UHGV virus genome: UHGV-0095853
Strand: one strand, 5' to 3'
Length of the DNA stretch: 35,246 bases
Source of the DNA: a virus
The notes beneath the pieces were generated by a model. It ran no database searches. It was not told the origin of the DNA and worked only from the letters and a program-made list of their open reading frames with translations. Position numbers and translations under genes: made by a program. Of this stretch, positions 1 to 27,198 are shown piece by piece (position 1 is the first letter of the stretch; the number at the start of each line of letters is the position of its first letter).

Positions 1-90
1 CGGCGGAAAAACCGGTATTTAACCGCACCGTTGGGCTGCGTGATACCTGGGCGAAGTTAGGTTAATAGGTATTTCGCCACATGAAAAAGT

Positions 91-116
91 AAACGCCGCT
101 ACTGCGGCGTTTTTTA
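91..116. terminator. Bidirectional intrinsic terminator at the 3' end of dam
   Basis: GC-rich hairpin (acgccgc / gcggcgt, loop tact) flanked by an A-run on one side and TTTTT on the other; overlaps the dam stop codon. Confidence 0.5.
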
Positions 117-1019
117 CTTCATTATTGCAATTATATCGTTAGCAACTACACGTGTTGACGCCTTGCAGGAAACCGACCGTCTGGCTGCCATATGATGTAC
201 TTTAAACCCGTTTCCTTCATATAGTTCACGGATGTTTGGAGCACCACTATTTGTTATCACTACCTTAGCGCCGCGCTGGTGGGCATCCACCAACAGTGAT
301 ACAAGCCGTTTTTGTTCATCGAAACGGAAGCTATTTCCTGAATAGCTGGTAAATCCCTCTGTATCCGGAAGCGGTTCATACGGCGGATCACAAAAAATCA
401 CATCGTCTTCACCAGCCGCCTCGATGACGCTAGCAAAGTCTCCTGATACAAAGGAAGTGTTTTTGAGTACGTCATCAGCCAAAAATGCCTCCATCTCTGC
501 ATGTGGGAAGTAGGGCGCTTTGTATTTGCCATACCCCACGTTGAACTCGCCATTTTGGTTGTACCGCGTTACGCCATTAAAACAGTGACGATTAAGGTAC
601 AAAAATGCGGCAGCATGATGTAGCTGGTCATATTTTCCTCTGTTAAATGCCTCACGCACTTCGAGGTAAGCGTCAGCGTTGTTGTAATTTTTGAAAAAAC
701 TATATGACAGCGTGACGAGCGAATGTCCTTCTCGCTGCAATGTCTGATAGAAGTTAATCAGGTCACCGTTAATATCATTAAGCAGGTTGTGGCGAAATCC
801 TGCATTCGTAAATACGGAACCGCCACCAACGAATGGTTCTATTAACCGCTTACCGTGTGGTAGATGCTCAAGCACTGTAGGCAATTCTGAGAATTTACCA
901 CCTACCCATTTGAATATCGGACGCTCATATTCATCCGGAGTCCGAATGGTGCGCATATAGCTAATTTCAGCCATCGTATCCTGTTTTTCTATGGCTATGC
1001 TTGCTATAGATTTACTCAT
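114..1019 (-). CDS. dam: DNA adenine methyltransferase, Dam family (N6-A, probable GATC specificity)
   Basis: Motif I FVGGGSV and motif IV DPPY; collinear with E. coli Dam along its length; start taken at ATG 1019 (MSKS...), overlapping the upstream stop. Confidence 0.85.
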   Translation of the reverse strand: MSKSIASIAIEKQDTMAEISYMRTIRTPDEYERPIFKWVGGKFSELPTVLEHLPHGKRLIEPFVGGGSVFTNAGFRHNLLNDINGDLINFYQTLQREGHSLVTLSYSFFKNYNNADAYLEVREAFNRGKYDQLHHAAAFLYLNRHCFNGVTRYNQNGEFNVGYGKYKAPYFPHAEMEAFLADDVLKNTSFVSGDFASVIEAAGEDDVIFCDPPYEPLPDTEGFTSYSGNSFRFDEQKRLVSLLVDAHQRGAKVVITNSGAPNIRELYEGNGFKVHHMAARRSVSCKASTRVVANDIIAIMK

Positions 1020-1692
1020 AGAGCACCCCCTTATTCGCTTCGAAAACTGCCTTTGCGAATCCATGTGGAGTAGCACTTCGGAAATTAGCCCTGTCAGGCC
1101 CTGGTGGCGCGGCATGGATTCTGTTATCTGGCTTGCCTAATGATTCGTCCATTAGGGCATCAGGCATGACAAAGCCCTGGCCGCTCCAGAGGCATGTTTT
1201 TTTGGTGTAGTTATCTTCCTGACAATATGCAGTGAAGAAGTAAGGGTGAAAGATGTGATCTGGCTTACGCCAGAATGTCGATATTTTGCTGACCGGATTT
1301 TCAATCATGTACGGACAACCGATCATCTTTGCAATGTCATAACACTGCCAGACAACCTGCATTGCTTTGAACTGGAAAACCGGATCTTTATTAGCCTTGT
1401 CCGAAAACCAGCGCGCGCCGGAAACAGCCAGGTCAGTACACGGTGGGAACCCGGCCAGAAACACGATGCGCTGCAAATTCTTACGGAGAAAAGCGTATAC
1501 TTCATCGCTATCGATGATCGCACTAATACGCGTCAGAACGGCACCTGATTGCATCCGCTCGTCACTGGTCGATAAGTGCTGTGGATCGACGATAGCGGCA
1601 TCGACACCGTATTCCAGCCAGGGGGCAACCATTGCCCCCGTAAAATCACAAAGACTCACAACAAGCGGTCGGTTATTATCGTTCTGCTTCAC
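1012..1692 (-). CDS. Short DNA (cytosine-5)-methyltransferase-like protein (226 aa), tentative
   Basis: GFPPC (motif IV-like PC dipeptide) and ENPV (motif VI-like); GTG start at 1692 with GGAGG 10 nt upstream; translationally coupled to dam; no obvious target-recognition domain. Confidence 0.5.
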
Positions 1693-2581
1693 CGCCAATG
1701 GCCTCCACCAGCGCGTTAAACAGTGCAGATAATTCGCCCGTAAAGAGCACGAAATCAGCATCAAATCGTTGTGCTACATCCTCCCGGTCGATATCGTCGT
1801 TCTGGTCATAGAGATCATCACAGAATGTCAGGGCTTTGATACTCATATCATCGTTGACTCTGAACGACGCACGGTCCATCCAGTTAATTGCAACGGTCGT
1901 AGCTACTTTCCCCGCCTCAATGTGAGACATAATCTCGTCGGACTGTAGATCAACTTTGTTGCAGCGAACGGCACCACCATTATCGAGCAGACCCTTTAAT
2001 GTGGCGTCTTCACCTGCTGTAAATCCGGCAGGGAAGCCGCTTTTAAACCACTCGGTCATTGTAATTTCCAGCGGTTCGCGTGGTGTGAATGGAATGACAG
2101 GCAGGCTGCCGAGCGACTTTCGCAATAAAGCCAGCTGGTCCTCTGCCTTTTTGGCGCTGCTTGCCTCAACGAATACCAGATGGTTGCTGCGGTCGATCAG
2201 GATTTTGGCGAGTGATTTTCTCGTGAACGCGCGAGGCAAAAGTGAATGCAGGACTTCATCTTTAAGACTGTCTCTTTCCGTTTTCTTCAGCTTGCGGGCT
2301 TGCTCTTCTTCGAGTTTCAGGACTTTTTTCTGCAACTCTTCCTTGAGCACCTGCGAGGGGAGAATTTTTTCTTCTCGCTTATGCTGTATTAGCAGAAAAC
2401 CCTGGTATTCATGGGTGAGGTTGTCACCAAGAACAGGTGTCCAACCGACTTTAGCTGTGTCCTGAGAACCGCAAGGAGTAAACACGAATTTGCTAAGAGC
2501 ATCGGATACTTCTGCGGCACTCCAGTTAACTTCACGTGAAAGACGATAGATGAAGATGTTTTTGAAAGCGACTGATCTCAT
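1676..2581 (-). CDS. rdgC: Recombination-associated protein RdgC homologue (P1 HrdC-like)
   Basis: Full-length collinearity with E. coli RdgC ([58 protein letters not shown]). Confidence 0.85.
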
Positions 2582-2587
2582 GTTTCA

Positions 2588-2631
2588 CCAATTGTGTTAG
2601 AAAATTCTATTCAATTATCTAACACAATTGG
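2588..2631. promoter_or_regulatory. Perfect 14-bp inverted repeat (CCAATTGTGTTAGA / TCTAACACAATTGG, 16-bp spacer) ending 7 nt before the rdgC start codon
   Basis: Read directly; arms carry the recurrent TGTGTTAGA operator core; not followed by a U-run so not a terminator. Confidence 0.5.
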
Positions 2632-2640
2632 ATGTGTTTT

Positions 2641-3294
2641 CTATCCCTTCTTGAAATCAAAGTTGCTTGCGATAGCCTGGAAGGTGCCTCCAGCCTTGAA
2701 ATCAATATTTTCGTCGGCTGTCACAGTAATGTTTTTGCCATTAACGCTGATGTTATCGGCTGATTTGACGTTAACACTCCCTCCCGCATTCACTACTACA
2801 TCAGCCGGACCAATGATGTATATCTGCCCTGATTCATTCATTCCAATCCTTGAGCCTGCTGCCGTATTCGCTATTTCATATCCACCGCCAGCCGTTCGCA
2901 CTTCGAGCACATTGTTGCGGTGAATCACGAAATCTTTTGTCGCCGAAAATTGCGGGCGGGGAGGCGCTCCGTCTACTTCTGGTGGCGTCCAGCCGCTACC
3001 ATTGCCTGACGCCTCCGGCGCGACGTTTGGTACTCCGCCAGGCGCATCCTGAGCTGCGCCAACTATCATTGGGCGTCTGGTATCAATTCGACCATTAACA
3101 TCCAGATAAGGAAACTCTACCCATACCAGGTCGCCTTTTACTGTAGGTACAAACGCGTTACCTATGGGTAACAGGTATTCTGCCCAGGGTAGATCGTCAT
3201 CAGGAACGCCATTCCAGTCTGGTAAAACACGGACCTGAGCACGCATAAGCCCTGCCGGGTGCACAGTTCCAACAATTTGCGCTCTACGCTTCAT
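2641..3294 (-). CDS. Phage protein of unknown function; N-terminal OB-fold-like region and C-terminal Gly/Asn-rich beta-repeat resembling gpV/gp45-type baseplate spikes (tentative)
   Basis: VRVLPDWNG..LPWAE..VKGDLVWVEF pattern then VNAGGSVNVKSADNISVNGKNITV repeats; ATG overlaps upstream stop (ATGA). Confidence 0.55.
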   Translation of the reverse strand: MKRRAQIVGTVHPAGLMRAQVRVLPDWNGVPDDDLPWAEYLLPIGNAFVPTVKGDLVWVEFPYLDVNGRIDTRRPMIVGAAQDAPGGVPNVAPEASGNGSGWTPPEVDGAPPRPQFSATKDFVIHRNNVLEVRTAGGGYEIANTAAGSRIGMNESGQIYIIGPADVVVNAGGSVNVKSADNISVNGKNITVTADENIDFKAGGTFQAIASNFDFKKG

Positions 3295-4271
3295 TTGTTC
3301 GGCACTCCCAATATCATTCGTGTTGTGTAGCCTACGCGGTCTTCAAAGTGCGCAACATTTTTTACTATCAGCTTACGGGGCATTGATTCATCAATGCGGT
3401 TTTCCTGGTCATAGCGGTATACGATAATCTCTATCACCATCCCCGGTTTTATATCAGGATTGCCTGCGACTTCTATATCCATTTTGGGGACGAGAGACAG
3501 CTGCATATTGCGAAGAGTTTCCATATCAGAGTCGGATATATAACGCACTGGGAGTGAGCTATCGCCATATTCGACGTAGCCATCGGTCATGGAATACCCA
3601 ACAAAACGATATTGATTCTTTGCTGTTGTCGCATGTTCCTGTTGGAGTAGGCGCATTTTGGACAAAGTGTATTCTGCTTTAGGGTTATTCCCCTCGTAGG
3701 TAAATGATGGCGTTTGCTTCATCAGATCAGCCAGGGTGTAAAAGTTAAATTCCCCCCGGCATACCCAACATAATGCACCTTTGTCTCGCGCTATCTCCGA
3801 AAGCATTTTTGACGGTTTGTCACCGGCATTCAGATGATATGTAACTGCGCGTTTTAGCACGCTGCTGGTAATTTTAAGCTTGCCGGAATATGCCTTGAAT
3901 ATAGCGTCTGGTGTTTTGTTGGTATGTAAATTTGTGCGCGGGGAGGGGATCTTAAACCTGCGCACGTCTTCACTGACAGCAATAACGGTAACAACATCAC
4001 CAGCCAGCATTGCAGACGTAACAAAGAAATCTGTTTTAAAAGTGCCTGCATTACCGTTTGGATCGCCCATTTCAGCCACCAGCGATGCACCGTATTTGGC
4101 TTTCCAGTCATCAATTACGGTGCCGGTAGCGTCATGAATTTCCAGTTTTAGCAAAGGGGCTTTGAGGCTGGTTTTTTCTACATATACTGCGGTAAAAATC
4201 CAGTCTCGTGGCACTTTGTTATCGTTAATGAGCACTGACTGTAGAAAATATTGTTGTAACTCCTGGGCCAC
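3291..4271 (-). CDS. Hypothetical protein (326 aa)
   Basis: Long ORF, GTG start 4 nt after upstream stop, co-oriented in a 4-gene operon. Confidence 0.6.
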   Translation of the reverse strand: MAQELQQYFLQSVLINDNKVPRDWIFTAVYVEKTSLKAPLLKLEIHDATGTVIDDWKAKYGASLVAEMGDPNGNAGTFKTDFFVTSAMLAGDVVTVIAVSEDVRRFKIPSPRTNLHTNKTPDAIFKAYSGKLKITSSVLKRAVTYHLNAGDKPSKMLSEIARDKGALCWVCRGEFNFYTLADLMKQTPSFTYEGNNPKAEYTLSKMRLLQQEHATTAKNQYRFVGYSMTDGYVEYGDSSLPVRYISDSDMETLRNMQLSLVPKMDIEVAGNPDIKPGMVIEIIVYRYDQENRIDESMPRKLIVKNVAHFEDRVGYTTRMILGVPNK

Positions 4272-4274
4272 TTA

Positions 4275-5042
4275 TCACCCCATAGATATCGAGGTTTCGG
4301 TAATAATACGTTTTGCGTCCAACTCCCATGCTGTGATCACGTCTGCAATCACACTTATCGGCGCTTGTGTGGCATAAATACGCTCTTCTCCAATTGGTGC
4401 TGAAACATCCGTAAAGCCGACTTCTTTGGCATCCTGTATCGAGCAAATCAGCGGGACCGGGACACGAACAAGGTGAGTGGTTGCTTCAAATTGTGTACCT
4501 GTCATCAGGCGAAGCCGTGCGCCCAGCGAATTACACATCAGACTCATGGTCGCTTTATCAGTTGCCATTAACGTAACGTCATACGTCAGAATGGCCTGGG
4601 TGTATTCCAGTTCTGCTAAAGGCATTCCGGTATCCGGTTCGCAAAAACTGGCTACTTTTTTGCGGTCAATCTGCTGATCATCGTTGATATAATTGATATC
4701 CATATTGCGTGAGATATTGACCAGGGGGAGAGCATCCCGGTTAATGTTCTGGTTTTCAGGTTTTCTCCCTTGCCCGGTATTTGCGCGACGAACTGCTTTA
4801 AGAAACTCGATCGCATTGTCGAAACGGGCCACATAGACACGCTCTGCTGGTGGACGATTCAGGAATGACGCAAAGCGTTTTTCTTCCGGCGCGGGGGCCA
4901 CCAGTAAGATATCAGAAAAAATGTTGCTGATTAGCGTCGCAAACGCGTTATCCACGTTTTCAAAGCCCGTGGTCTGGAATTTTCCTGTGCGTGAGGTTTG
5001 CCATTCACCTGTTCGTGCCAGGAGGGTTTTATTTGAAGTCAT
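4275..5042 (-). CDS. Hypothetical protein (255 aa)
   Basis: Long ORF with ATG overlapping upstream stop (ATGA). Confidence 0.6.
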   Translation of the reverse strand: MTSNKTLLARTGEWQTSRTGKFQTTGFENVDNAFATLISNIFSDILLVAPAPEEKRFASFLNRPPAERVYVARFDNAIEFLKAVRRANTGQGRKPENQNINRDALPLVNISRNMDINYINDDQQIDRKKVASFCEPDTGMPLAELEYTQAILTYDVTLMATDKATMSLMCNSLGARLRLMTGTQFEATTHLVRVPVPLICSIQDAKEVGFTDVSAPIGEERIYATQAPISVIADVITAWELDAKRIITETSISMG

Positions 5043-5830
5043 TCGATCACTCCGTTTTGAGTCGTATCAAAATTTCTGGCAGGTATGCAGTAGTAAAGCG
5101 AACCAACATGCTGTGTGCCGTAGCTAAAAATACGGTGCACGTACCACCAGCGGCGGGCTACGCCGTTTACCATCTCTTCATTCCATTCAAGAATTGAGCC
5201 GACGGGGACGTTATTTGCTGCAATACGCAGAATCAGAACATCATCGGTTAAGCCATCCTGCTCACCGTCTGCGTCAATCGCATGGAAAGAGTCACGCCCG
5301 TCAGGGTTATCCAGCACATAAACGATTTCAGGTTCCTGGTAAGTCAGTTCGCGTTGGTTGTTATCCAGTTCAGTGAATGACTCTTCTCCTGTTTCGTCGC
5401 TGACTACCCCATATGTGCCAACATCTGGTCGATATAAGAGAGCCTGAAACGCGTCTGGGCTGGATTCAATAATCAGCATCCAGTCTGCGCGGATTTGGTC
5501 ATTAAAGGCTTTATGCCCGTTATAGCGTGCTTTTAACTGTGGAGTCGGTTCTCTGCCAGCCAGGGAAGGTGGAAGTATGGCTATATCTGATTCGCCAGCG
5601 TCCGGAGTAAGGCCACCGTTGCTATCAGCAAAATTATCATGGCTATCAGCTTCGGCGGTGGATTGCTCTTCCAGAATGCTGAATGAATCCGGTCCGGCAT
5701 TGCCATGTTCCGGCGCGCTTCCTGCATCCGCTTCAACCGTCGCTGGCGTTTCTCTCTGCGTGCTGTCATGTTCTGACTCCTTACTTGCCAGGTTTGCATC
5801 GTCAGCAAACCATTCGTCAAAACGGCCCAT
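5039..5830 (-). CDS. Hypothetical protein with acidic low-complexity N-terminal half
   Basis: ORF 5039..5872; preferred start ATG 5830 (MGRFDEW) with GAGG 6 nt upstream. Confidence 0.55.
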   Translation of the reverse strand: MGRFDEWFADDANLASKESEHDSTQRETPATVEADAGSAPEHGNAGPDSFSILEEQSTAEADSHDNFADSNGGLTPDAGESDIAILPPSLAGREPTPQLKARYNGHKAFNDQIRADWMLIIESSPDAFQALLYRPDVGTYGVVSDETGEESFTELDNNQRELTYQEPEIVYVLDNPDGRDSFHAIDADGEQDGLTDDVLILRIAANNVPVGSILEWNEEMVNGVARRWWYVHRIFSYGTQHVGSLYYCIPARNFDTTQNGVIE

Positions 5831-5906
5831 AAGCATCCTCAAAGGTCGATTTATCAGGTATCGAGGGTGCATTGTCTGGAGATTGTGATTTCAATTCATA
5901 TCCCAG

Positions 5907-5951
5907 CATGGGACTAAAGTGCTTTACATTGTCCCATATCGGGACTACTAT
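5907..5951 (+). promoter_or_regulatory. higBA promoter with overlapping inverted repeat (ATGGGAC ... GTCCCAT), probable HigA operator
   Basis: TTTACA (5922-5927) / TACTAT (5946-5951) hexamers; inverted repeat 5907-5913 / 5930-5936 brackets the -35. Confidence 0.45.
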
Positions 5952-5975
5952 ACTTTCAGCGAGAAGGAATCTGTG

Positions 5976-6278
5976 ATGAAAATAATTTCGGTAAAAACAC
6001 TAAGGGATTTCTGGGCGAAGAATCCCGATGCAGAACAGCCATTAAAGGCATGGGTTGATGAAGCAACAAAGGCTGACTGGAAAAATCCGGCTGAGATCAA
6101 AGAACAGTACCGGACAGCCAGCATCCTTAAAAACAGGCGCGTGGTGTTCAATATTAAGGGAAATGATTACAGGTTAATTGTCGCAATTGCTTATCAGCGA
6201 GGATGGATGTTCGTTAAGTTTATTGGAACACATAAGGAATACGATGCCATTGAAGCGGATACAATAGAACTGGAGTAA
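5976..6278 (+). CDS. higB: Type II toxin HigB-family (RelE-fold mRNA interferase)
   Basis: About 100 aa; FNIKGNDYRLI and FIGTHKEYD signatures; directly followed by an HTH antitoxin. Confidence 0.75.
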   Translation: MKIISVKTLRDFWAKNPDAEQPLKAWVDEATKADWKNPAEIKEQYRTASILKNRRVVFNIKGNDYRLIVAIAYQRGWMFVKFIGTHKEYDAIEADTIELE

Positions 6279-6281
6279 ATC

Positions 6282-6641
6282 ATGAACATTAAACCTATCC
6301 GTACAGAACAAGATTATGAGGCCGCACTGCGTGCGGTCGAACCGATGTTCGATAACGAACCGGAAATGAACACACCGGAAGGCGATTTCTTTGAAGTAAT
6401 GTGCCTGCTCATTGAAGAGTACGAGAAAAAGCATTACCCAATTGAGCCACCATCACCTATTGAAGCCATTAAATTCCGTATGGAACAGCAAGGGCTGACC
6501 GTGAAGGATCTGGAACCGGCGATTGGTAAGTCAAATCGTGTTTACGAAGTGCTAAATGGGACACGAAATTTAACGTTACCTATGATTCGTCGTTTACATT
6601 CCCAGTTTGGCATTCCTCTTGAAAGCCTGGTTGGTGTATGA
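6282..6641 (+). CDS. higA: HigA-family antitoxin (XRE-type HTH)
   Basis: C-terminal HTH (LTVKDLEPAIGKSNRVYEVLNGTRNLTLPMIRRL); 3-nt gap after higB. Confidence 0.75.
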   Translation: MNIKPIRTEQDYEAALRAVEPMFDNEPEMNTPEGDFFEVMCLLIEEYEKKHYPIEPPSPIEAIKFRMEQQGLTVKDLEPAIGKSNRVYEVLNGTRNLTLPMIRRLHSQFGIPLESLVGV

Positions 6642-6645
6642 GTTT

Positions 6646-6672
6646 GGCGGTCTGTATGACCGCCTTTGTTGT
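6646..6672 (+). terminator. Intrinsic terminator after higA
   Basis: Hairpin ggcggtc-tgtat-gaccgcc followed by TTTGTTGT. Confidence 0.6.
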
Positions 6673-6675
6673 CAA

Positions 6676-7872
6676 TCAAGAACCTTTCTTCACGTACTCC
6701 ATAAACATTTTTTCAGCTTGCTCAGGTGACGTTCCTGCCATGACCAGTGCATCAATGAACGCTTGCTTCTTCAGTGCGAATTGATCGGCAAGGCGTTGCT
6801 GAAGCTCCTTGTTTTTCTGTTTCTCACGTTGCAAGGCTGCTTCTTTTGCTGCTGCCCGTTTTTTCTGTGCATCGGACAACTTTCTGGCCCTGGTCAGCTG
6901 GTCACGTAGCTTGTCAATCTTCCCGTTGTCCTTTGCCAGTTTTGTGCTTAAAGCGGCCTGGCGTTTCTGATAGAGCCTCCATTCGCGCTTGGCGGCTTCA
7001 ACGTTCGTTTTACTGCTACGATTGCGATTAAACTCCTTCTCGTCTTCTTTTGAGAAGTGTTTAGTTGTACGGCGGCGATCGTCACCAAATGCAATTTGCG
7101 TTGCGGCCTTTTGTAACGCACGAGCAATACTCATTTGCCAACTGGCGGACTGTAACCGCGTCATTGAGTGGATCACGTGTTTACAGGCGACGCCTTGTAG
7201 CTTAGGGTTACGAACTTTTGGATAGGCGTATTCTTTTGGCGGGGCCAGGGCAAAGTTACCCGCAGTAGCGATGTAACGATACCAGTATTGATGACGACCA
7301 CAGTCACAATCGAAAGACACCCGCCCGGCGCACAGTGATTTAGTGATTTTCAGAGCTGATTTATCGTCTTCTGCGATGTCATCGACCATCTGATCCCATT
7401 CTTCAAAGCGTATCCGGACGATATGGTGCTGGTGGACGGATATATCCGATGCTTCTACGCGGATATTAATCACGTTGTGGCGAAGAGATACAGGTGTAGC
7501 TCTTTTGATACCAGATCCGTCATCCACGGCGTTATTTGCACGCTTAATATCGATTGCCTGGCTGGATGCCACCAGCTGGGCGTATGTGATGCCAGCCGTC
7601 TTGCTGTCATATTTTTCGCGTGTTTTACTCCGTAGCTTTTCGAAACCTTTCAGGTCGTCTCGCGTGAAGAACGTGCCGCCTTTTTTCTTCCCTAACTTGA
7701 GAATATCTTCGGCGGATTTGTTCCTCAGTCTACCTGGCGTCAGCGTCCGGTGAGCTTGTCGGCGCTTACGGGTTTGTTCTTTCCTGATAAGGTCGAATAA
7801 ACGCGTGAAGTCCTTAGAGGACAGGCCGTCAGTGATATAGCGCCCGTCCTGGTTTTTCAGGAAATCAGGCAT
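6676..7872 (-). CDS. SWIM-type zinc-finger protein with Lys/Glu-rich C-terminal coiled coil; function unknown
   Basis: CxC...CxH motif (FDCDCGRHQYWYRY...GVACKHV); C-terminal 130 aa heptad-like K/E/Q-rich; GGAG 8 nt before ATG; overlaps upstream gene by 8 nt. Confidence 0.55.
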   Translation of the reverse strand: MPDFLKNQDGRYITDGLSSKDFTRLFDLIRKEQTRKRRQAHRTLTPGRLRNKSAEDILKLGKKKGGTFFTRDDLKGFEKLRSKTREKYDSKTAGITYAQLVASSQAIDIKRANNAVDDGSGIKRATPVSLRHNVINIRVEASDISVHQHHIVRIRFEEWDQMVDDIAEDDKSALKITKSLCAGRVSFDCDCGRHQYWYRYIATAGNFALAPPKEYAYPKVRNPKLQGVACKHVIHSMTRLQSASWQMSIARALQKAATQIAFGDDRRRTTKHFSKEDEKEFNRNRSSKTNVEAAKREWRLYQKRQAALSTKLAKDNGKIDKLRDQLTRARKLSDAQKKRAAAKEAALQREKQKNKELQQRLADQFALKKQAFIDALVMAGTSPEQAEKMFMEYVKKGS

Positions 7873-9444: not shown

Positions 9445-10068
9445 ATGAAGGATGGTGTAGTGAAGTTAAGGGTTTTAGGGGCCGCGCTCGCGGCTATGTT
9501 GGGATGCGTATCTGCTAATACTGCCAATGCAACTGCGTTACCTGCACAATTCAGGGCAGGGCAGCAGGTTATGAATAACGCTGGTGGGGATCATTCACAA
9601 GCGGCCATTATGGACTTTTGCAAGAGGGAGGGCATTCCATTACGGCCTGTTGGAACTCAGTTTATTGGTAAAACTGACTTTTGCGTTTTTGCATATACAG
9701 CATATCTGACGGACAAAGCTATAACAAAAACAGGTTATTCAACCAAAGATACTCTTTCCAGATTAAGTCAGGGATGGCAGCAATTCGAAGTGTATCGCCA
9801 GCAAGGATTAGGTGAGTTATTGCAACCACTTTTTATGCTTGCGTTGGTGCCAGAGGGGCAGCAATTTTTGGTTAAAAAGGGAATGCTTCGCCAAAGTGAT
9901 ATTGCCGGGTTCGATAGCATGATGGCTTATGAGCGCAAACTAACCGAGCAGCGAAATAAAAAACCATCTGCTTCATGTGTGCAAAGTAAAACAGCAGAAT
10001 ACAGTGCAGTAGCCGGGCCTTTAGCCAAACAAATGGCAGAGCAATGGTGTAAAAAATACGGGCAATAA
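9445..10068 (+). CDS. Exported protein of unknown function
   Basis: N-terminal signal-peptide-like segment (LRVLGAALAAMLGCVSANTANA). Confidence 0.6.
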   Translation: MKDGVVKLRVLGAALAAMLGCVSANTANATALPAQFRAGQQVMNNAGGDHSQAAIMDFCKREGIPLRPVGTQFIGKTDFCVFAYTAYLTDKAITKTGYSTKDTLSRLSQGWQQFEVYRQQGLGELLQPLFMLALVPEGQQFLVKKGMLRQSDIAGFDSMMAYERKLTEQRNKKPSASCVQSKTAEYSAVAGPLAKQMAEQWCKKYGQ

Positions 10069-10088
10069 GTTACGCAGCGGAGGCAGAA

Positions 10089-10481
10089 TTGAAAAGATTG
10101 GCTATTGCTTTACTGGCGTCTTTCCCTTTGATCGCGAGCGCCGGAAATTTACAAGTTAAGTGCGGTCGGTTTGATATAAAAATCTATCCGGATGCCATAT
10201 TTCTGAATGGGAATAAGGTTGATAACGCACACCGAAAAACTGAATCTGACGTAATGAGCTATGTGTTCCAGGAGTATGCGGAGATGGGGGGAACTTACAC
10301 GCTGTACTCGCTGGATGTTCCTTCTCGCGGTGATATGACATTATCCCATCAATGGCAGAACGCCGATGGCGAAGCTCTGCGCGAGGTTAAAACAGAAAAA
10401 TGTGGCACTTTCCATTCTTTTAAAGGGAAAGCGCCAAATGTTAAATCTGTGCTTGAAAAACAGCGCGCAGGTGAGCTTTAA
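10089..10481 (+). CDS. Exported protein of unknown function
   Basis: Signal peptide MKRLAIALLASFPLIASA; two Cys in the mature part. Confidence 0.6.
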   Translation: MKRLAIALLASFPLIASAGNLQVKCGRFDIKIYPDAIFLNGNKVDNAHRKTESDVMSYVFQEYAEMGGTYTLYSLDVPSRGDMTLSHQWQNADGEALREVKTEKCGTFHSFKGKAPNVKSVLEKQRAGEL

Positions 10482-10868
10482 ACACCTTTAACCACGGAGA
10501 TGCCGTTCCCTGCACGATAGCGGCGGGGAACGGAATTCTCCATCAGGTCACGAATTACTCCCGCCTCATGTAGTCCCACTGTTTCCCAGTATCTGTTTGT
10601 CACCAATTACGCCCCGTTCCGCCAGGGGAAGGTATGAACGAGCTTCTGCTTCGGTTGCAGCCATGACGCAGATATACAGGTGTTTTTGGCAGGAATAGAA
10701 ACGCCAGATAAATTCAGAATGAGTTGGGGTGGGGATAGTAGCGATATTGGCAGCCTCCTTTGACTAAGTTAAGGAGCTACCGCGTGAGGTTCCAATCCCG
10801 GCACCCGTTTTTCTAAGGTGCCGTAGAAATATACCCCACGATAATGCCAGGGCGCAACAGTCAGTATT

Positions 10869-11036: not shown

Positions 11037-11354
11037 TTTGACACCCCCAGCGCGAGTAAAGAATGCAGATTATCGCGTGAGTGGCGGACAACGAGTGATG
11101 GGAAAAGACAGTAGCTGTTCATAGTGTAGTGACTCCTTGCTTTCGGAGCCGCCATCGACTGTTCCACGGTCTGGTGGCGGCGCAATAAAGGCTGGAACAC
11201 CGTGAGTCAACGGGGGCTTTTCAGCCACCTATATTGCACCGCCATTGGTATGGCGGCGGCAATCATACGAAAAACTAAATAGTTTGTCTCAAAAAGTTGA
11301 CCGGTGTGCCAATCGGTAGTGAATGTACATCGGAGCATTTTTCAATTCAACTTA

Positions 11355-11371
11355 AAATGTTAGAAAACTAA
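11355..11371 (+). promoter_or_regulatory. Single operator-like site AAATGTTAGAAAACTAA at the 3' end of ref
   Basis: Near-identical to the site 25 nt upstream of gene 28613..29650. Confidence 0.35.
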
Positions 11372-11946
11372 TTTATCAATTCAATCGCCATCTGATACAA
11401 CGCCATTTCATCGGCATTGTGCCGCATGAAATCTGCTTTTCCGCCTATTTTTCCGTCAGCATGAACAGGGACCAGCCAGGGATATTGTTCTCGGACCTCG
11501 GCTGGCGCTGCGTACTGGTGGTGCCATTTACACAAAGGGAGGACATATTTATGCGCGTTCTCTGCCGTTCTCCCGAAGATATGGTGCAGGGATACCACTG
11601 GGCTATGTTGCCCGTGAATATGGCAGGCAATGCAGGGGAGAGTACCGATAGCGGTCTGTATCCGGCGTTCATCGGCTGTGAGTGATCTTCCTTTCAGGCC
11701 GCGTGACGTGCGTGTTTTTTTGGACGGAGCTGATACAGCTTTATCTTTTCTCCGCTGTTCATATTGCTTTGCTTTTTCAATTTTCTTTTGCCGATATTCA
11801 GGCGATGCGGCTTTTTCTCTCGCTCGCTGCTGCTGGCGTTGAGCTTGTTGAAGGCGCTTTGCCCTTTGTTCCTCTCGCCAGGCCGGGTCAGCCAATTTTT
11901 GCATGGCTTTTTGTCTCTGTTTCTCCCAATAACTCTGTTTCTGCAT
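11368..11946 (-). CDS. ref: Ref-like HNH endonuclease (P1 recombination enhancement function family)
   Basis: About 80-aa highly charged, probably disordered N-terminus then Cys/His-rich core (CIACHIHG...HHIFGR...CKWHH); divergent promoter carries operator pair. Confidence 0.6.
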   Translation of the reverse strand: MQKQSYWEKQRQKAMQKLADPAWREEQRAKRLQQAQRQQQRAREKAASPEYRQKKIEKAKQYEQRRKDKAVSAPSKKTRTSRGLKGRSLTADERRIQTAIGTLPCIACHIHGQHSPVVSLHHIFGRTAENAHKYVLPLCKWHHQYAAPAEVREQYPWLVPVHADGKIGGKADFMRHNADEMALYQMAIELIN

Positions 11947-11990: not shown

Positions 11991-12031
11991 AAATGGTTAG
12001 ATATTCAAAATTGATTTTCTAACACAAAACA
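11991..12031. promoter_or_regulatory. Inverted operator pair (GTTAGA-N17-TCTAAC) in the divergent ref / DUF4406 promoter region
   Basis: GGTTAGATA at 11995-12003 and TTTTCTAACAC at 12015-12025, followed by a TAATAT -10-like hexamer. Confidence 0.45.
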
Positions 12032-16021: not shown

Positions 16022-16063
16022 AAATGTGTTAGAACATTGATTTTAGTTTTCTAACATATTATT
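16022..16063. promoter_or_regulatory. Inverted operator pair (GTTAGA-N15-TCTAAC) upstream of gene 16099
   Basis: TGTGTTAGAAC at 16025-16035 and TTTTCTAACATA at 16047-16058, then TATTAT. Confidence 0.45.
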
Positions 16064-17407: not shown

Positions 17408-18026
17408 CTATCAAGAACTGCGCGAGGCGGCGGAACAGGCAACGCAAGATGAATGGGTAGCATATATTTTGCCGGGTCATAACGGCATTTATCCTGCGCG
17501 CACGTCTGAGGGTAGGCATTGCGGATACTTTATTGACTGGCCTGGCGTCTGTCAGGGGCGGGAGAGCATCAGCATCAGAACCTACGCAGTGAATTGCAAT
17601 GACGCATGGCTAAACACCGAAGGTGATGACATCTCCGGCTCATACGTTAAGTACAAAGACCATCAGGAAGTGGTTGCCGCTCTTGAGGCCAAGTGCGCGG
17701 CGCTGGCAGTGGAGAATGAGCTGGCTCGTAAGGCAGTTCAGGCATTCTGCGATGTTGTTGGCGACAACACTGAGGTTATCGCTGAGGTGGTTGGGCGAGA
17801 TGGCGTTCTGGTTATTTTGGAGGCCATGAAGGCAACAGGAAATATGCCAGCCACCGATGCTTTCCTGGCTGAAGTACGGGCGCAGGGCGTGGATATGGCT
17901 CGTAACGCGATGATTGATTTTGTTGATGGTGAAGTTGGGCCAAACAAGAACGTTCCGGGGCTGATTAGAGGCGCAGAGATATGCGTAAGTATTGCTGAAC
18001 TGCTTCGCAAAGGAGGCAACCAGTGA
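17394..18026 (+). CDS. Ea22-like family protein
   Basis: N-terminus MSKINYQELREAAEQATQDEW; C-terminal module shared with 13146..13628. Confidence 0.6.
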   Translation: MSKINYQELREAAEQATQDEWVAYILPGHNGIYPARTSEGRHCGYFIDWPGVCQGRESISIRTYAVNCNDAWLNTEGDDISGSYVKYKDHQEVVAALEAKCAALAVENELARKAVQAFCDVVGDNTEVIAEVVGRDGVLVILEAMKATGNMPATDAFLAEVRAQGVDMARNAMIDFVDGEVGPNKNVPGLIRGAEICVSIAELLRKGGNQ

Positions 18027-18511
18027 GCGAAATTAATTACCAGTCACTGCGCGAGGTGGCGGAACGTGCAATTCCAGCAATGGAACGCCTGTTAATGTTG
18101 CCAGCTGATGATGATTTGTTAAGTGAACAGGAACTTAAAGATTACGGTGTGGATATTGATGCGCTCAACGCCTTCAAATTTCTGGCCGGACCAGAAACCG
18201 TGCTGGCACTACTGGATGAACGGGAAAGGAACCAGCAATACATCAAATCCCGCGACCAGGAGAACGAGGATATTGCGCTAACGGTAGGGAAGTTGCGCGT
18301 TGAGCTTGAGGCAGAAAAACAGCGGGCAAAGGATCTGTTTATGGAAAATGCTCGGCTTAAGTCAGGTATAGCCGGTCTGATACACCTCGGTATTCGATAT
18401 GCAGATGTTGATGTCATGAAAATTGCTGGAGATGCCCAGCTTTCTACTCCATGCACTGACAGCATCATAAACAGCATTGCAACAGGCATTCGCATCAACG
18501 GAGGTGAGTAG
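18023..18511 (+). CDS. Ea22-like family protein
   Basis: MSEINYQSLREVAE ... LLDERERNQQYIKSRDQENEDIALTVGKLRVELEAEKQ, matching lambda Ea22 as recalled. Confidence 0.7.
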   Translation: MSEINYQSLREVAERAIPAMERLLMLPADDDLLSEQELKDYGVDIDALNAFKFLAGPETVLALLDERERNQQYIKSRDQENEDIALTVGKLRVELEAEKQRAKDLFMENARLKSGIAGLIHLGIRYADVDVMKIAGDAQLSTPCTDSIINSIATGIRINGGE

Positions 18512-18683
18512 TGCGTGTGGCATGTATCGGCTTGTTACCGTACCCGACTCGTTTTTGGGCTTCTGCGCTAATTGCAAAGCCACATGTCCTGATGGCTGAC
18601 AACATCATCCCGGCACCAAAGCGCCGCCATACCGGTATTGCAGCGGCACGACGAGCAGCAAAGAGACGCAGGAGAGCAAAGCG

Positions 18684-18860
18684 ATGAAAAACCGTAAGGC
18701 AAAACGACTTTTTTTACAGCGACCTGTGCGTGTGGTGGAGCTGGTTATTAGCAACCATAAGATAGCGGTACTCCATCCATTTGGTCAGGTGGCTTTTGCC
18801 GCAAAGCGTAAGCCTACTGCGTCACAGAACAGGCGGAAGAAAGGGTACGCAGTAAGATGA
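18684..18860 (+). CDS. Small basic protein (58 aa)
   Basis: Begins MKNRKAK; stop overlaps next ATG (ATGA); GGAGAG upstream. Confidence 0.35.
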   Translation: MKNRKAKRLFLQRPVRVVELVISNHKIAVLHPFGQVAFAAKRKPTASQNRRKKGYAVR

Positions 18861-19045
18861 AAAACCGTAAAGCAAAGATTCTGTTAGTTCGTAGAAACGC
18901 TCCTGGCGTCTGGCAGTGGGTGAGACTCAGCAACCGACGGATGGGGTTGATGAAATATTACGGGATGATGGATTGTGGTTTTTGCAAAAAGCCCAGCGCG
19001 GCGCAAAACCGCTGGAAAAACCATTTGCGCACTAAAGGAGAGTGA
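18857..19045 (+). CDS. Small basic protein (62 aa), partial paralogue of 18684..18860
   Basis: Begins MKNRKAK; first 20 nt nearly identical to the preceding ORF. Confidence 0.4.
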   Translation: MKNRKAKILLVRRNAPGVWQWVRLSNRRMGLMKYYGMMDCGFCKKPSAAQNRWKNHLRTKGE

Positions 19046-19046
19046 T

Positions 19047-19256
19047 ATGGCTATTGCCGCAAGTTACACCATGCATCTCTATTGTGACTGCCGCCAGTGT
19101 ACGGAAGGTGTATATCCAGTGCCAGACTTCGGTGAATATATCGGTACGTCATGGGCTGGCTGTGCAAAAGAGGCACGTAAGGATGGCTGGCGAATAAGCA
19201 AAGACAAAACACGTGCTTTTGCGCCCGGGCATAAAGTTTTGAGGATTAACAAATGA
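19047..19256 (+). CDS. Small Cys-rich protein (69 aa)
   Basis: ATG preceded by AAAGGAG; CDCRQC motif. Confidence 0.45.
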   Translation: MAIAASYTMHLYCDCRQCTEGVYPVPDFGEYIGTSWAGCAKEARKDGWRISKDKTRAFAPGHKVLRINK

Positions 19257-19924
19257 CCACTTTAACCGACAAAGAACTGATTAAAGAAATCAAAGAGCGT
19301 ATCAGCAGCCTGGACGTTCGAGACAATATTGAACGCCGGGCTTATGAAATTGCACTGGCATCGCTGGAAGCAGATCCAGTTGCTTATATTTTCAAACATC
19401 CGGCCGGGAAATTATTCTGGGCTTTAACGGATGAAAGCAATAAAGAGCAACCGGACGTTATTCCTGTTTATGCTGCCGCGCCTGCGTCGGTTGTGCCGGA
19501 TAATGCATCAGAGCCTCTTGCTTATGCTTACAAAGAGCTTACGCCTGAGATTATGCGCAACCAGGCTGCCGAATCCAATCGCGGTAATGAGTGGACCGGC
19601 AATCCTGATATTGATAACGCCATCATCATGCTCGACCGCATAGATACGCTGGAAAATTGCGATGATGACCGTATTGAGGCTGTTAAGGCTGTTTTGCGTA
19701 GACTGGCTGGCAACTCTCCGGTAACTCCGGCTGGTTGGATAAGCTGTAGTGAGCGGACGCCGAACGACGCGCAGTGGTGCGTAGTGAACACAAAATACGG
19801 GTATTACGTGCAATGCTGGTCTGAAGGTCAAGGGTGGCTTGGTGATGATATCAGCATCCCTGAATGCGATGTAATCAATTGGATGCCGCTACCGGAACCG
19901 CCGCAGGAGGTTAACCGTGGATAA
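19253..19924 (+). CDS. DUF551 domain protein
   Basis: C-terminal Trp-rich module ending INWMPLPEPP, typical of lambdoid DUF551 proteins. Confidence 0.6.
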   Translation: MTTLTDKELIKEIKERISSLDVRDNIERRAYEIALASLEADPVAYIFKHPAGKLFWALTDESNKEQPDVIPVYAAAPASVVPDNASEPLAYAYKELTPEIMRNQAAESNRGNEWTGNPDIDNAIIMLDRIDTLENCDDDRIEAVKAVLRRLAGNSPVTPAGWISCSERTPNDAQWCVVNTKYGYYVQCWSEGQGWLGDDISIPECDVINWMPLPEPPQEVNRG

Positions 19925-20198
19925 CCTGCAACTAGCCGTTAAAGGTGAATACTTCGATGCCATAATTCGTGGAGAGAAAACGGAAGAGTATCGCCTGTGT
20001 AATGACTACTGGAATAAGCGAATTATGTTCCGGGAGTATGACCGCCTGATTATCACAAAGGGATATCCGAAGCGCGACGATTCCAGCCGCAGAATTGACG
20101 TTCCGTATGAAGGATATGAAATCAAGACAATCACACATCCCCAATTCGGCGATAAACCGGTAAAGGTGTACGCGATAAAGGTGAATATCAATGGCTAA
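19917..20198 (+). CDS. ASCH/DUF3850-like small protein (tentative)
   Basis: EYFDAIIRGEKTEEYR...REYD pattern; GTG start with GCAGGAGG 8 nt upstream. Confidence 0.4.
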   Translation: MDNLQLAVKGEYFDAIIRGEKTEEYRLCNDYWNKRIMFREYDRLIITKGYPKRDDSSRRIDVPYEGYEIKTITHPQFGDKPVKVYAIKVNING

Positions 20199-20631
20199 AT
20201 TTCAAAGAGCTATTATTTTTCTGGCTATGTTATCAGCCAGTCATTTATCCCACGCGTCAGTTATTGCCGCTGGAGCGGCGGCAACAGCGACGGCAACAGC
20301 GGCGGCAACAGCAGCGACCACGGCGGCAGTAAATGCTTCTATCGCCAGCGAGCAAGCGCGGCGTGCTGCAACCAATGCTTCCGCAAACACCACCACGGTA
20401 TCAGTAACACAATCAAAACCGAATATAGGCTTTGTTACTTGCGGAAAGAGGAATAGCGAAATGGTTGGTTCTCTTGGTTGTGTAATGTGGCAAGAGGACG
20501 ATAGGCCTGAAATCCCGTGGAACTCATGGCCTGGTTACATTCTTGGTAAGAAGATACCCACCAGCTATGAAGTAAATGCTATTTCATTCGACCAATATAA
20601 CGGTGTTGCAACGGTGTATTTTCTGTATTAA
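20191..20631 (+). CDS. Exported protein with Ala/Thr-rich linker
   Basis: Signal peptide (IIFLAMLSASHLSHA) then AAATATATAAATAATTAA low-complexity tract. Confidence 0.55.
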   Translation: MAKFQRAIIFLAMLSASHLSHASVIAAGAAATATATAAATAATTAAVNASIASEQARRAATNASANTTTVSVTQSKPNIGFVTCGKRNSEMVGSLGCVMWQEDDRPEIPWNSWPGYILGKKIPTSYEVNAISFDQYNGVATVYFLY

Positions 20632-20643
20632 CACGGAGTAATT

Positions 20644-20937
20644 ATGTGGCGTGGTAATAATCATGGCAAAAGCCAGATGATACTTACCGAATATAAGCTA
20701 GACCACAAAACCAATAAATCACGCTCAGTATATTTGCTCCGGCACAATAGCCGCGTAAGAAATACCGTGCTGGAACAAAATCTGACAGTTGAAATGGATA
20801 ATTACGGGGGATTCAAGCCAGCAATTTCGCTTGATGATTTTCCTCGTGGTTTAAGCGAAAGAGAAGCCATGCTGAAATTAGCAGAATGGCTTCAGAGGTT
20901 AAGTATTGCTATTGAAGATAACTGGAGTCAACCATAA
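20644..20937 (+). CDS. Hypothetical protein (97 aa)
   Basis: ATG preceded by GGAG. Confidence 0.5.
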   Translation: MWRGNNHGKSQMILTEYKLDHKTNKSRSVYLLRHNSRVRNTVLEQNLTVEMDNYGGFKPAISLDDFPRGLSEREAMLKLAEWLQRLSIAIEDNWSQP

Positions 20938-21113
20938 TGAAAAACAGAAAGAAATTTTGGATTACTTTTTTGTTTGTATGCCTTTGCGGTTTATTTATTT
21001 TATTAGCTGGTGGTGTTAAATGGGGTACGGTGGAGTGTGGTTTTTGGAGCGGGGTTACTCTTTTCGCAGCCTGGCTTATCGCCAACTTTGAGTCAGGCGG
21101 AGGATATTGGTAA
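20937..21113 (+). CDS. Possible small membrane protein (58 aa)
   Basis: ATG overlapping upstream stop (TAATG); two hydrophobic segments; begins MKNRKK. Confidence 0.35.
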   Translation: MKNRKKFWITFLFVCLCGLFILLAGGVKWGTVECGFWSGVTLFAAWLIANFESGGGYW

Positions 21114-21192
21114 GTGGTCTTATTCCCCACTTCATAACGGATATCACGCTCGTGATAACGGATATTCCAATTTTGATAACGGATAAGGCCAA

Positions 21193-21402
21193 ATGAAGCA
21201 TTTTTTAAGGTTGGCATTTGTTCTGGCGCTATTTGCTCCTCCGGCTGCAATGGCTGGAGAACAGCAACATTGCACAAAAGAGAATGAACACCCTTTCATC
21301 GTTATTCAATGCGATGACGGAACGGTGACTGTGGTTAATGTAAGAAATGACCGTGTAGCTGTTTGCCGTAAAGGCGAACCATGCAAGGAAATAAAACTAT
21401 GA
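21193..21402 (+). CDS. Small exported Cys-containing protein (69 aa)
   Basis: Signal peptide LAFVLALFAPPAAMA; four Cys in mature part. Confidence 0.5.
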   Translation: MKHFLRLAFVLALFAPPAAMAGEQQHCTKENEHPFIVIQCDDGTVTVVNVRNDRVAVCRKGEPCKEIKL

Positions 21403-22157
21403 CAAGAATCACTAAAGAGCGTATTTCAGATATTATTTCCCGTATCGAAATGTATGGTCACGGTGCTGGATATACGGCAGATGAAGTATTGGCACTTGCC
21501 CAAATGGCTTTGGCGGCTTGCAAAGATGATAAAAAAATGAAGCTTATCGACTTGTTAGTGAAAGAGCTGCCTAAGTGCGGCGGGTGGCCTGATGGTATGA
21601 TCGATTGTCGCCTGCTCAGTGCCAATTTAATGGCGCCATGCGCGACTTTTGCTTTTGGCTCAGACCACAAAAAAGACACGTTCTTTGGGCGCAATTTTTG
21701 TTGTGAGATTGAGCTTCCAATTGGTGACCTTGATAGCGATGAATACCTGTCAGTTGTCACTCGCGAACAATACGAATCAGCTCTCATAGCGTCGCAGAAA
21801 GTCGAGTTCAATGGTGATGAACTTGAAAGTAAGACTTACAGGTTGGATTTTGGGCAATGGCTGGAACAGCAACGCGGGAAAATCGATGTGGACTGTGGTT
21901 GTGTGTCCACTGAAACATTCATGCACTGGCTGCGGGTAGCTTACGAGGCTGGCAACCATCCGGATTTTCCGGATAGTTCCCAACAATCGCCCAAGAAAAG
22001 CGTAAAAACCACTCTGGAAAGAGGCTATCTTGAGGCCGCATTAAAGATTAAGCCGGGCCATACGCTAGGCGTCATTGATGCCATGTTGGTTCATGAAATG
22101 GCGAAGGCTTTATTGCCGCTGGTGGCTGATAAAATTCCGAATAAAGCCGATATCTGA
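21399..22157 (+). CDS. Hypothetical protein (about 252 aa)
   Basis: ATG 21399 overlaps upstream stop; Cys-rich. Confidence 0.55.
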   Translation: MTRITKERISDIISRIEMYGHGAGYTADEVLALAQMALAACKDDKKMKLIDLLVKELPKCGGWPDGMIDCRLLSANLMAPCATFAFGSDHKKDTFFGRNFCCEIELPIGDLDSDEYLSVVTREQYESALIASQKVEFNGDELESKTYRLDFGQWLEQQRGKIDVDCGCVSTETFMHWLRVAYEAGNHPDFPDSSQQSPKKSVKTTLERGYLEAALKIKPGHTLGVIDAMLVHEMAKALLPLVADKIPNKADI

Positions 22158-22846: not shown

Positions 22847-23236
22847 ATGGGCTTCCCTTCTCCTGCGGCGGATTATGCAGAGAGCCGCATTTCTCTTGAT
22901 CAGCAACTAATCAGACATCCTTCCGCGACCTACTTCATGCGGGCGGCAGACAGCCATCACCGTGAGGGAATATTGCAAGGTGCTTTGCTGGTGGTTGATT
23001 CCTCACTTACTCCGGTTGATGGTTCACTGCTTATATGCGCCATGGAGGGTGAATATCGCATAAAGAGATACAGGAAGTATCCGCGCCAGCACCTGGAGGA
23101 TTTAAGCACCGGGAAGAAAGAGGCGTTACCAGTGGATGACGATGGATGCACGGGCAGTAATGCTGTGTTTGGTGTGATCACTCATGTCATTAATGATGCC
23201 CGAAGTGGGGAGTTTGATTATAGACCTGTGATTTAA
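22847..23236 (+). CDS. humD: UmuD'-like protein (P1 HumD-type, begins at the position of the UmuD autocleavage site)
   Basis: MGFPSPAADYAESRISLDQQLIRHPSATYF matches UmuD residues 25 onward; Ser and Lys of the S24 dyad retained; lacks the N-terminal 24 residues. Confidence 0.8.
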   Translation: MGFPSPAADYAESRISLDQQLIRHPSATYFMRAADSHHREGILQGALLVVDSSLTPVDGSLLICAMEGEYRIKRYRKYPRQHLEDLSTGKKEALPVDDDGCTGSNAVFGVITHVINDARSGEFDYRPVI

Positions 23237-23249
23237 GGCGCATAAAGAA

Positions 23250-23277
23250 GCCCGCCAGACCTGGCGGGCTTTTTGTT
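23250..23277. terminator. Bidirectional intrinsic terminator between convergent humD and the terminase-paralogue operon
   Basis: Stem gcccgccag / ctggcgggc followed by TTTTTGTT. Confidence 0.65.
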
Positions 23278-23281
23278 GATA

Positions 23282-27179: not shown

Positions 27180-27196
27180 GATGTGTTAGAAATTTA
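27180..27196. promoter_or_regulatory. Single operator-like site GATGTGTTAGAAATTTA between the recombinase stop and the dut operon
   Basis: Matches the recurrent TGTGTTAGAAA core. Confidence 0.4.
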
Positions 27197-27198
27197 AT

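Follow-up and report, generated by a model that had tools for sequence, protein, structure and literature searches.

The window, as we call the whole stretch of 35,246 nucleotides of UHGV virus genome UHGV-0095853 analyzed for this report, is colinear over its full length with positions 61522-91159 and then 1-7436 of Escherichia phage D6, a P1-related plasmid prophage, with some segments replaced. The identity ranges from 91 to 97%, and window positions 1600-3400, which contain the locus described here, are 91% identical to D6. By these sequence comparisons the window is a D6-like phage-plasmid of the P1 family. Similarity to D6 is absent or patchy at 9502-10626, 17425-22000 and 23228-24393; these are replaced accessory modules and they include the region of the D6 genes simB and pmgF and of an antirepressor. 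ARAGORN detected a tRNA-Met (CAT) at 34467-34542 and a tRNA-Ser (TGA) at 34955-35041, both on the minus strand, and in the colinear D6 record the tRNA-Ser is a plus-strand feature and a tRNA-Met is missing.

The first gene of the operon under consideration is rdgC (1676-2581, minus strand, with its ATG at 2581-2579), a homolog of P1 hrdC. Its product matches the Pfam RdgC family (E 5e-103) and shares 95% amino-acid identity with the product of D6 orf65 and 51% with P1 HrdC. In the D6 record orf65 is entered as 'RdgC family, similar to P1 hrdC', and after it come genes for a cytosine methylase and for an adenine methylase labelled 'similar to P1 dmt'; mapped onto the window, this annotation places a C5-cytosine methylase homolog at about 1012-1692 and the dmt homolog at 114-1019, both on the minus strand. 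A first-pass annotation of this DNA had spoken of an operon of rdgC and a methyltransferase, and the two methylase homologs do follow rdgC. The same annotation lacked the minus-strand orientation of the gene, the D6/P1-family nature of the element and the repressor discussed below. Between the dmt homolog and a convergent glnS homolog lies a repeat, ATGAAAAAGTAAACGCCGC / GCGGCGTTTTTTACTTCAT, at 81-122, which is probably a bidirectional terminator that closes the hrdC-methylase operon. On the other side of rdgC, the D6 homologs of the P1 tail and baseplate genes 7, 24, 6 and 5 precede it on one common strand; the last gene of this late tail operon is the baseplate gene homologous to P1 gene 5 (2641-3294, minus strand), as identified from the ORF and the D6 annotation.

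The gap of 59 bp that separates rdgC from the stop codon of the upstream baseplate gene is mostly taken up by an inverted repeat at 2588-2631. On the plus strand its two arms are CCAATTGTGTTAGA (2588-2601) and TCTAACACAATTGG (2618-2631), which are perfectly complementary over 14 bp and enclose a 16-bp spacer (2602-2617); in the output of a repeat finder the arms grow to 19 nt, 95% complementary, around a centre of 6 nt. For spacers of up to 40 nt, no other perfect inverted repeat of the window is as long, and 14 bp was reached in none of 30 first-order Markov resamples, the maximum being 12, so that the perfect repeat noted at first pass is borne out. In the mRNA sense the gap reads ...GGA TAG AAAACACAT CCAATTGTGTTAGA TAATTGAATAGAATTT TCTAACACAATTGG TGAAAC ATG, where TAG terminates the minus-strand ORF that lies upstream (2641-3294). 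Since rdgC is on the minus strand, the start-proximal arm in the mRNA sense is 2601-2588, and it ends 6 nt before the rdgC ATG, with TGAAAC in between. The Shine-Dalgarno-like GGTGA of rdgC, as read from the sequence, lies at 2585-2589 on the minus strand and has only its GG inside the arm. The overlap of repeat and ribosome-binding site that had been proposed therefore holds for these two nucleotides and not for the remainder, and the distance to the ATG, given earlier as 7 nt, is 6 nt.

A scan of positions 2400-2800 found one sigma-70-like site, on the minus strand, with an 18-bp spacer and a 9/12 match to the consensus. Its predicted -10, GATAAT (2614-2619, minus strand), was recognized by consensus match, lies inside the upstream half of the repeat and is invariant in all the lineages of relatives described below. 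The predicted -35, TAGAAA (2638-2643, minus strand), is weak and shares nucleotides with the TAG that terminates the baseplate gene; other lineages have TAGAAA or TAGCAA at this place and a spacer of 17-18 bp. We infer from this arrangement that the transcript starts near 2607, inside the spacer of the repeat.

The same gap has some likeness to a late promoter. Late promoters of the P1 family carry a conserved box upstream of the -10, and AAAACACA at 2638-2631 differs at one position from the late box of D6 type, AAATCACA. No -10 stands at the required distance here, however: the arrangement AAATCACA-N7-TAnnnT is absent at hrdC, D6 itself has AAAATGCA at this place, and the sites of the motif described in the next paragraph precede early and immunity genes rather than structural operons. 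That the repeat is a late (Lpa-dependent) promoter element, or else a chance repeat, strikes us as extremely improbable. In the window as a whole, AAATCACA occurs seven times against 1.9 expected, and before the gene 7 homolog (5891-5884, minus strand) it is followed, after 7 nt, by a -10-like hexamer. D6 has AAATCACA-N7-(-10) before six late operons (those of genes 7, 23, prt, R, pmgB and ddrB; upstream of orf69 and orf51). The AAATCACA box as such is probably the D6-type Lpa-dependent late promoter.

Each arm of the repeat holds an asymmetric motif of about 19-21 bp, TGTGTTAGAAAAyTAAwTT, which is dispersed through the window. When all occurrences of GTTAGA/TCTAAC in the window were listed, common flanks became apparent, and a PWM was built from the window sites; D6 is so closely related that it does not provide an independent test. 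Scanning with this PWM gave 11 window sites with scores of 17.8-28.9 and two weaker ones, as compared with 0-5 in each composition-matched shuffle at a cut-off of 11, and a whole-genome scan of D6 gave about 20 motif half-sites. At the repeat, the rdgC-proximal half-site (2591-2611, plus strand) is ATTGTGTTAGAAAATTCTATT, with a PWM score of 26.8 and its GTTAGA at 2596 (listed as caattgtGTTAGAaaattc), and the rdgC-distal half-site (2608-2628, minus strand) is ATTGTGTTAGATAATTGAATA, with a score of 27.0 and its core at 2618 (listed as caattgtGTTAGAtaattg); the latter contains the predicted -10. Inverted pairs of the form GTTAGA-N16-TCTAAC, with their 22-bp offset, occur four times in the window (at 2596, 11996, 16028 and 33017) against 0.05 expected, a geometry which, together with the resamples, rules out a chance repeat. 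We refer to the pair upstream of hrdC (half-sites 2596/2618 within 2588-2631) as OhrdC.

The three other bivalent copies are at 33012-33049, upstream of the lpa homolog (32545-32937, minus strand), where the half-sites 33017/33039 are weaker matches; at 11991-12028, flanked by the homolog of ref and the divergent orf88 operon, where the site at 12018 (minus strand, ttttgtGTTAGAaaatcaattt) has a weaker partner at 11996; and at 16023-16060, between the ppp and pdcB homologs, with half-sites at 16028 (plus strand, aaatgtGTTAGAacattgattt) and 16050 (minus strand, taatatGTTAGAaaactaaaat). By position, the first of these would be the analog of P1 Op86 and the second that of P1 Op2ab. Monovalent copies, all on the plus strand, lie at 28581-28601, about 12 bp before the ATG of the c1 homolog (GTTAGA at 28586, ttttatGTTAGAaaactaaatc; the analog of P1 Op99), at 11354-11374, upstream of the orf86..icd/antirepressor module, which is immI-like (11359, ttaaaatGTTAGAaaactaattt; the analog of P1 Op51), and at 27180-27200, upstream of the orf117-dut-isaA operon and past the 3' end of the recombinase gene (27185, agatgtGTTAGAaatttaattt). 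The D6 scan adds sites before repL, a second icd/antirepressor module, pmgS and orf52, and on the D6 map the motif is found before the immunity and early operons c1, lpa, ref, repL, c4-icd-ant and dmt. D6-like genomes have two of the immI-like icd/antirepressor modules with one high-scoring operator before each, at D6 positions 21270 and 75981, the second of which corresponds to window position 11359. In relaxed scans promoter-like hexamers, which are weak consensus matches, overlap most of the other motif sites.

The C1 repressor of P1 acts at 22 dispersed, asymmetric 17-bp operators with the consensus ATTGCTCTAATAAATTT, and repL and lpa are among the genes under its control (PMC8546580); ref, ban, ssb, kilA and dmt are also C1-controlled (PMC4713147). 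The GenBank record of P1 describes a 'monovalent C1-controlled operator Odmt, former Op68' that overlaps the -35 of the sigma-70 promoter Pdmt of uhr-hrdC-dmt, as well as the bivalent operators Obanab (Op72ab) and Oc1ab, each consisting of two inverted 17-mers with a 6-bp overlap; operators also flank c1/coi. Single and inverted bivalent sites occur side by side in the window, as they do among the C1 operators of the P1 family, and in copy number, asymmetry, mixture of single and paired sites and gene neighbourhoods the window motif is, on these sequence comparisons, like the P1 C1 operators. The operons c1, lpa, ref, the immI-like icd/ant module and hrdC-dmt, and in D6 also repL and the second icd/ant module, have counterparts among those known to be under C1 control in P1.

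The presumed repressor of the motif is the product of the c1 homolog at 28613-29650 (plus strand), an assignment made by PHROG family, homology and synteny. Both this protein and P1 C1 match phrog_1678 (E 5e-159 and 3e-140, respectively), even though the pairwise comparison of the two gives 20% identity (E 8e-8). The c1 homolog is 90% identical to D6 orf1 ('prophage repressor, similar to P1 C1') and has a syntenic position next to pacB and the recombinase gene with its rox site. The P1 consensus ATTGCTCTAATAAATTT has no match in the window at three or fewer mismatches, which excludes an operator of P1 specificity, and for this reason we regard the site as a D6-type analog; with C1 proteins that are only 20% identical, a different motif sequence is to be expected. 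The motif is absent from the searchable literature, and the D6 genome paper falls outside that scope, so that the D6 operators may already have been described.

Upstream of c1, the further boxes ATTTTCTAAAT and TCCTTTACTCA (28500-28515 and about 28540-28560) are kept in four lineages, and ATTTTCTAAAT resembles a weaker inverted copy of the operator. By analogy with P1 Op99c-e, these boxes may be additional autoregulatory sites. Another inverted repeat of this neighbourhood, TCTAACTTTAAATAAT-ACTA-ATTATCTAAAGTTAGA at 28378-28413, shares GTTAGA with the motif; as an operator pair it was excluded, since the D6 annotation identifies it as a rox recombination site and the likeness is coincidental. 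It lies by the gene for a Cre/Dre-like recombinase (about 27199-28227, minus strand), and its spacer and one arm position vary by lineage (..GCCA.. / ATTATTTAAAG in D6 and an E. coli plasmid).

Since the uhr-hrdC-dmt promoter of P1 carries the operator Odmt (Op68), the interpretation of the repeat that we favour is a bivalent C1-type operator placed over a sigma-70 promoter. We consider it likely that the repeat serves as such in this D6-like phage-plasmid, on the early promoter of the rdgC/hrdC-methylase operon; the reading draws on motif, position and conservation, from which C1 binding, the promoter, the start site and repression are predicted. The 'paired operator' that the first-pass annotation had offered as one of two possibilities thus gains a good deal of substance from the identity of the arms with the dispersed motif, from three further promoters at which their geometry recurs and from the C1 operator that P1 has at the equivalent operon. 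In the mechanism we propose, two motif copies would face each other in inverted, tail-to-tail orientation, with their GTTAGA and TCTAAC cores offset by 22 bp. Relative to the predicted start, the upstream half-site extends from about -4 to -25 and the downstream half-site from about +1 to +17, which is a classic occlusion arrangement. In the prophage, C1 bound over the -10 and the start would be expected to block RNA polymerase and keep the hrdC(rdgC)/C5-methylase/dmt operon off, and upon inactivation of C1 the operon would be transcribed from about 2607. The site would then be the functional counterpart of P1 Odmt (Op68)/Pdmt.

The likeness to P1 Odmt includes the orthologous operon (an RdgC-family gene and then a DNA methyltransferase), the overlap with a sigma-70 promoter, membership in a set of about 20 dispersed sites and a repressor of the same protein family. 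The two sites differ in that P1 Odmt is monovalent and located at the -35, whereas OhrdC, as a bivalent site, lies over the predicted -10 and transcript start, and in their cores, GTTAGA in the window and CTCTAAT in P1. The P1 operon has uhr and a divergent gene upstream, whereas the operon of the window directly follows the late tail operon. With the bivalent P1 operators Obanab (Op72ab), Oc1ab (Op99ab) and Op2ab, OhrdC has in common that asymmetric copies are inverted tail-to-tail on a promoter with overlapping A/T-rich tails. The P1 pairs span 28 bp. In the window the pair takes up about 38 bp, with a distance of 22 bp from core to core; depending on how the motifs are aligned, the window pair is longer by about one helical turn. 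A further difference is that OhrdC has 5-7 extra complementary base pairs, which covary among relatives.

Conservation was examined in the leaders of fetched plasmid relatives and of 26 IMG/VR contigs with the core pair, which together yielded 16 distinct sequences in four lineages: the window type (W), the D6 type (D), plasmids of Shigella dysenteriae and E. fergusonii (S) and the E. marmotae type (E). A scan of contigs from metagenome-assembled genomes for the core pair returned four unrelated matches and was uninformative, and plasmid pJ14577 was set aside as not relevant, being a conjugative IncT plasmid. Throughout the 16 distinct sequences the cores TGTGTTAGATAATT and TTTTCTAACA(C/T)A are invariant or nearly so, in flanking coding DNA whose identity falls to about 70%, and the central 8 nt vary freely (GAATAGAA, AATATGTA, AACGCGTA, CACTTTAA and TAGTTTTA). 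Invariant cores around a free centre are, at the level of sequence, the pattern of two protein-contacted half-sites. One plasmid of E. coli, pMUB-MIN14-1 (NZ_CP069647.1), has an hrdC pseudogene that has lost its start codon, a remnant of 225 bp in the annotation, and on this plasmid the right half-site of the operator has decayed by a 2-bp deletion.

Outside the cores the arms behave differently. Pairing was read outward from the cores in a gap-free anchored alignment (A5), in which positions d0-d3 (TGTG/CACA) are conserved and d4-d8 differ by lineage yet stay paired. From d4 to d8 the pairs are TA AT AT CG CG in lineage W, TA TA AT CG CG in D, AT AT CG UG TA in S (equivalent to a 1-nt deletion in both arms) and CG AT AT AT AT in E, where CG and GC follow further out; in one W variant the d2 pair is changed from GC to AU in both arms. 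Altogether, six pairs are altered on both sides, with 24 compensated cells, a result that none of 500 shuffles reached; the covariation score is 0.247 against at most 0.097 with slid partners, and 77 of the 80 outer cells are paired. Such compensatory changes are those expected of a leader hairpin, with the caveats that the sequences are related and that template-switch mutation might produce the same pattern. Drift in repressor specificity would be another conceivable source of the covariation. The c1-proximal operator, including its flank, is invariant in the four lineages amid a diverged spacer, and since this flank is the same in all lineages, co-evolution with the repressor is ruled out as the cause.

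It is because the outer 5-7 bp are complementary and covary that an RNA hairpin is proposed here in addition to the operator. RBS-sequestering leader hairpins that depend on the promoter used or on a processing event are well known, for example in the N leader of phage lambda with RNase III. OhrdC would resemble leaders of this type in having a stable stem that stops some nucleotides short of the start codon, takes in part of the Shine-Dalgarno sequence and is present in the longer transcript only, and it would differ from them in that most of the stem is an invariant, putative protein-binding motif; the hairpin of the window is, moreover, a prediction from sequence. The folded repeat has a predicted energy of -21.1 kcal/mol on its own and z = -4.5 in a 101-nt context, and in all lineages the stem ends 5-12 nt before the AUG. 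It pairs only the GG of GGUGA, and in lineage S the Shine-Dalgarno sequence is outside the stem. Single-sided changes comprise five G-U/U-G wobbles on the sense strand, two of the antisense type and two other mismatches, and are too few to decide the matter.

Could the repeat then be primarily a hairpin of the hrdC leader that makes the ribosome-binding region inaccessible, or else an element for RNase III or for RNA stability, with its likeness to the motif secondary? The stability of the fold, the covariation of the outer stem in four lineages, the five wobbles on the sense strand and the constant placement before the AUG all speak for such a reading, as does the finding that other P1/D6-like families with baseplate-rdgC adjacency have a repeat at the start codon separate from an operator-like site. 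Against it, the best-conserved part of the stem is the core of the dispersed operator, which is invariant and does not covary, and the same pair of cores with the same spacing recurs at three promoters, away from start codons and unpaired outside the cores. In addition, the predicted promoter starts its transcript within the loop, a search of Rfam returned no family, the only matches being sub-threshold ones to generic hairpins (miRNA), and the corresponding hairpin of Leclercia has a z of -1.0. We therefore regard a primarily RNA-based function as unlikely.

With the predicted start located in the loop, only RNA reading through from the tail operon would hold both arms. Read-through of this kind is supported by the D6-type late box before the gene 7 homolog and by the circumstance that no terminator was called between gene 5 and hrdC. 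A hairpin hiding the ribosome-binding site, the other possibility raised at first pass, accordingly finds some backing in the compensated pairing beyond the cores in four lineages, for which binding of the repressor does not by itself account, and is at odds with the operon's own predicted transcript, from which the upstream arm would be missing. A role of the repeat in late read-through RNA, where it might lower translation of hrdC or act as a signal for processing or stability, is possible, and we put it forward with considerable reservation.

The terminator scan covering 2400-2800 called none on either strand, and the stem on the sense strand is followed by UGAAACAUG. On the plus strand the stem does give way to a T-rich run, ATGTGTTTTCT, in every lineage, as would be seen in an intrinsic terminator of plus-strand (antisense) transcripts. 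The conserved GATAGAAAA of the sense strand accounts for this constancy; the tract has interruptions, and the stop codon together with the -35 region explains it. Furthermore, there is no plus-strand gene upstream that such a terminator could serve, the nearest plus-strand unit, the glnS homolog, having already ended at the terminator-like repeat at 81-122. A terminator function is for these reasons very improbable.

A competitor of the hairpin concerns the origin of the outer pairing rather than the operator itself. Work on mutagenesis in E. coli has established that intrastrand template switching at near-palindromes copies the flank of one arm onto the other. If the repeat is an operator only, its extra complementarity might be the neutral outcome of such quasipalindrome correction and have no function as a hairpin. 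The two cores form a near-palindrome of ~19 bp with a centre of 6-8 nt, which should be a good substrate, and a single template-switch event would account for the symmetric 1-nt deletion and for double transversions that otherwise call for two point mutations. The outer edge of the palindrome varies (d8 in W, D and S; d10-11 in E), and uncorrected mismatches persist in the sequences W2, D4, W4 and S2, as would also fit this origin. On the other hand, only OhrdC pairs beyond the operator cores; the other three bivalent sites lack an outward extension in both the window and D6, although their cores are less perfectly complementary. The stem also abuts the translation start region in every case, and there is the slight excess of sense-strand wobbles. 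An operator with no hairpin function is a serious candidate to which we would give somewhat less than an even chance. As explanations of the outer pairing taken by itself, template-switch mutation and selection for a hairpin are plausibly equally good.

Returning to the bivalent C1-type operator as the preferred reading, one may picture the 44 bp as acting at two levels, in DNA as operator and promoter and in late read-through RNA as a hairpin of ~20 bp. This combination is a tentative proposal and, in our estimate, rather doubtful. If it were true, the operon would be translated efficiently from the early promoter and be damped or processed as the tail of the late message, with the hairpin either masking the start region of hrdC or being cleaved, for example by RNase III; the need for a hairpin would also explain why, in four lineages, the arms are complementary beyond the contacts made by the repressor. 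The covarying extension might accordingly represent an operator that doubles as an RNA structure or, equally, a palindrome perfected by template switching, and with either alternative the general picture of P1-type immunity would stay the same.

The D6-type C1 repressor probably recognizes this motif, whose roughly 20 sites would delimit its regulon: c1, lpa, repL, ref, hrdC-dmt, the two antirepressor modules and a few genes whose role is unknown. With more than 120 plasmids in PLSDB, D6-like phage-plasmids are frequent in E. coli, Salmonella and Shigella, and the motif should allow their immunity groups to be predicted from sequence and supply sites for binding studies.

Related arrangements are found in more distant P1/D6-like families. 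Plasmids of Leclercia and Citrobacter keep the adjacency of baseplate gene and rdgC, with an operator-like GC[CG]TTAGAAT right after the stop codon and a separate short repeat that ends 2-4 nt before the ATG; as a hairpin, the Leclercia repeat is not significant, the z being the value given above. In a de novo k-mer search for the Leclercia operator the Chi-like word GCTGGTGG dominated, and GC[CG]TTAGAAT came from targeted inspection only. The Leclercia plasmid pE1_003 (NZ_CP042508.1) represents a third family of P1/D6-like phage-plasmids, in which the candidate operator aaaaaGC[CG]TTAGAAt is found ahead of a c1-like gene, past the recombinase gene and ahead of rdgC. The Chi-like GCTGGTGG words are strongly over-represented in this plasmid, and a Tn3-family transposon splits its terminase region.
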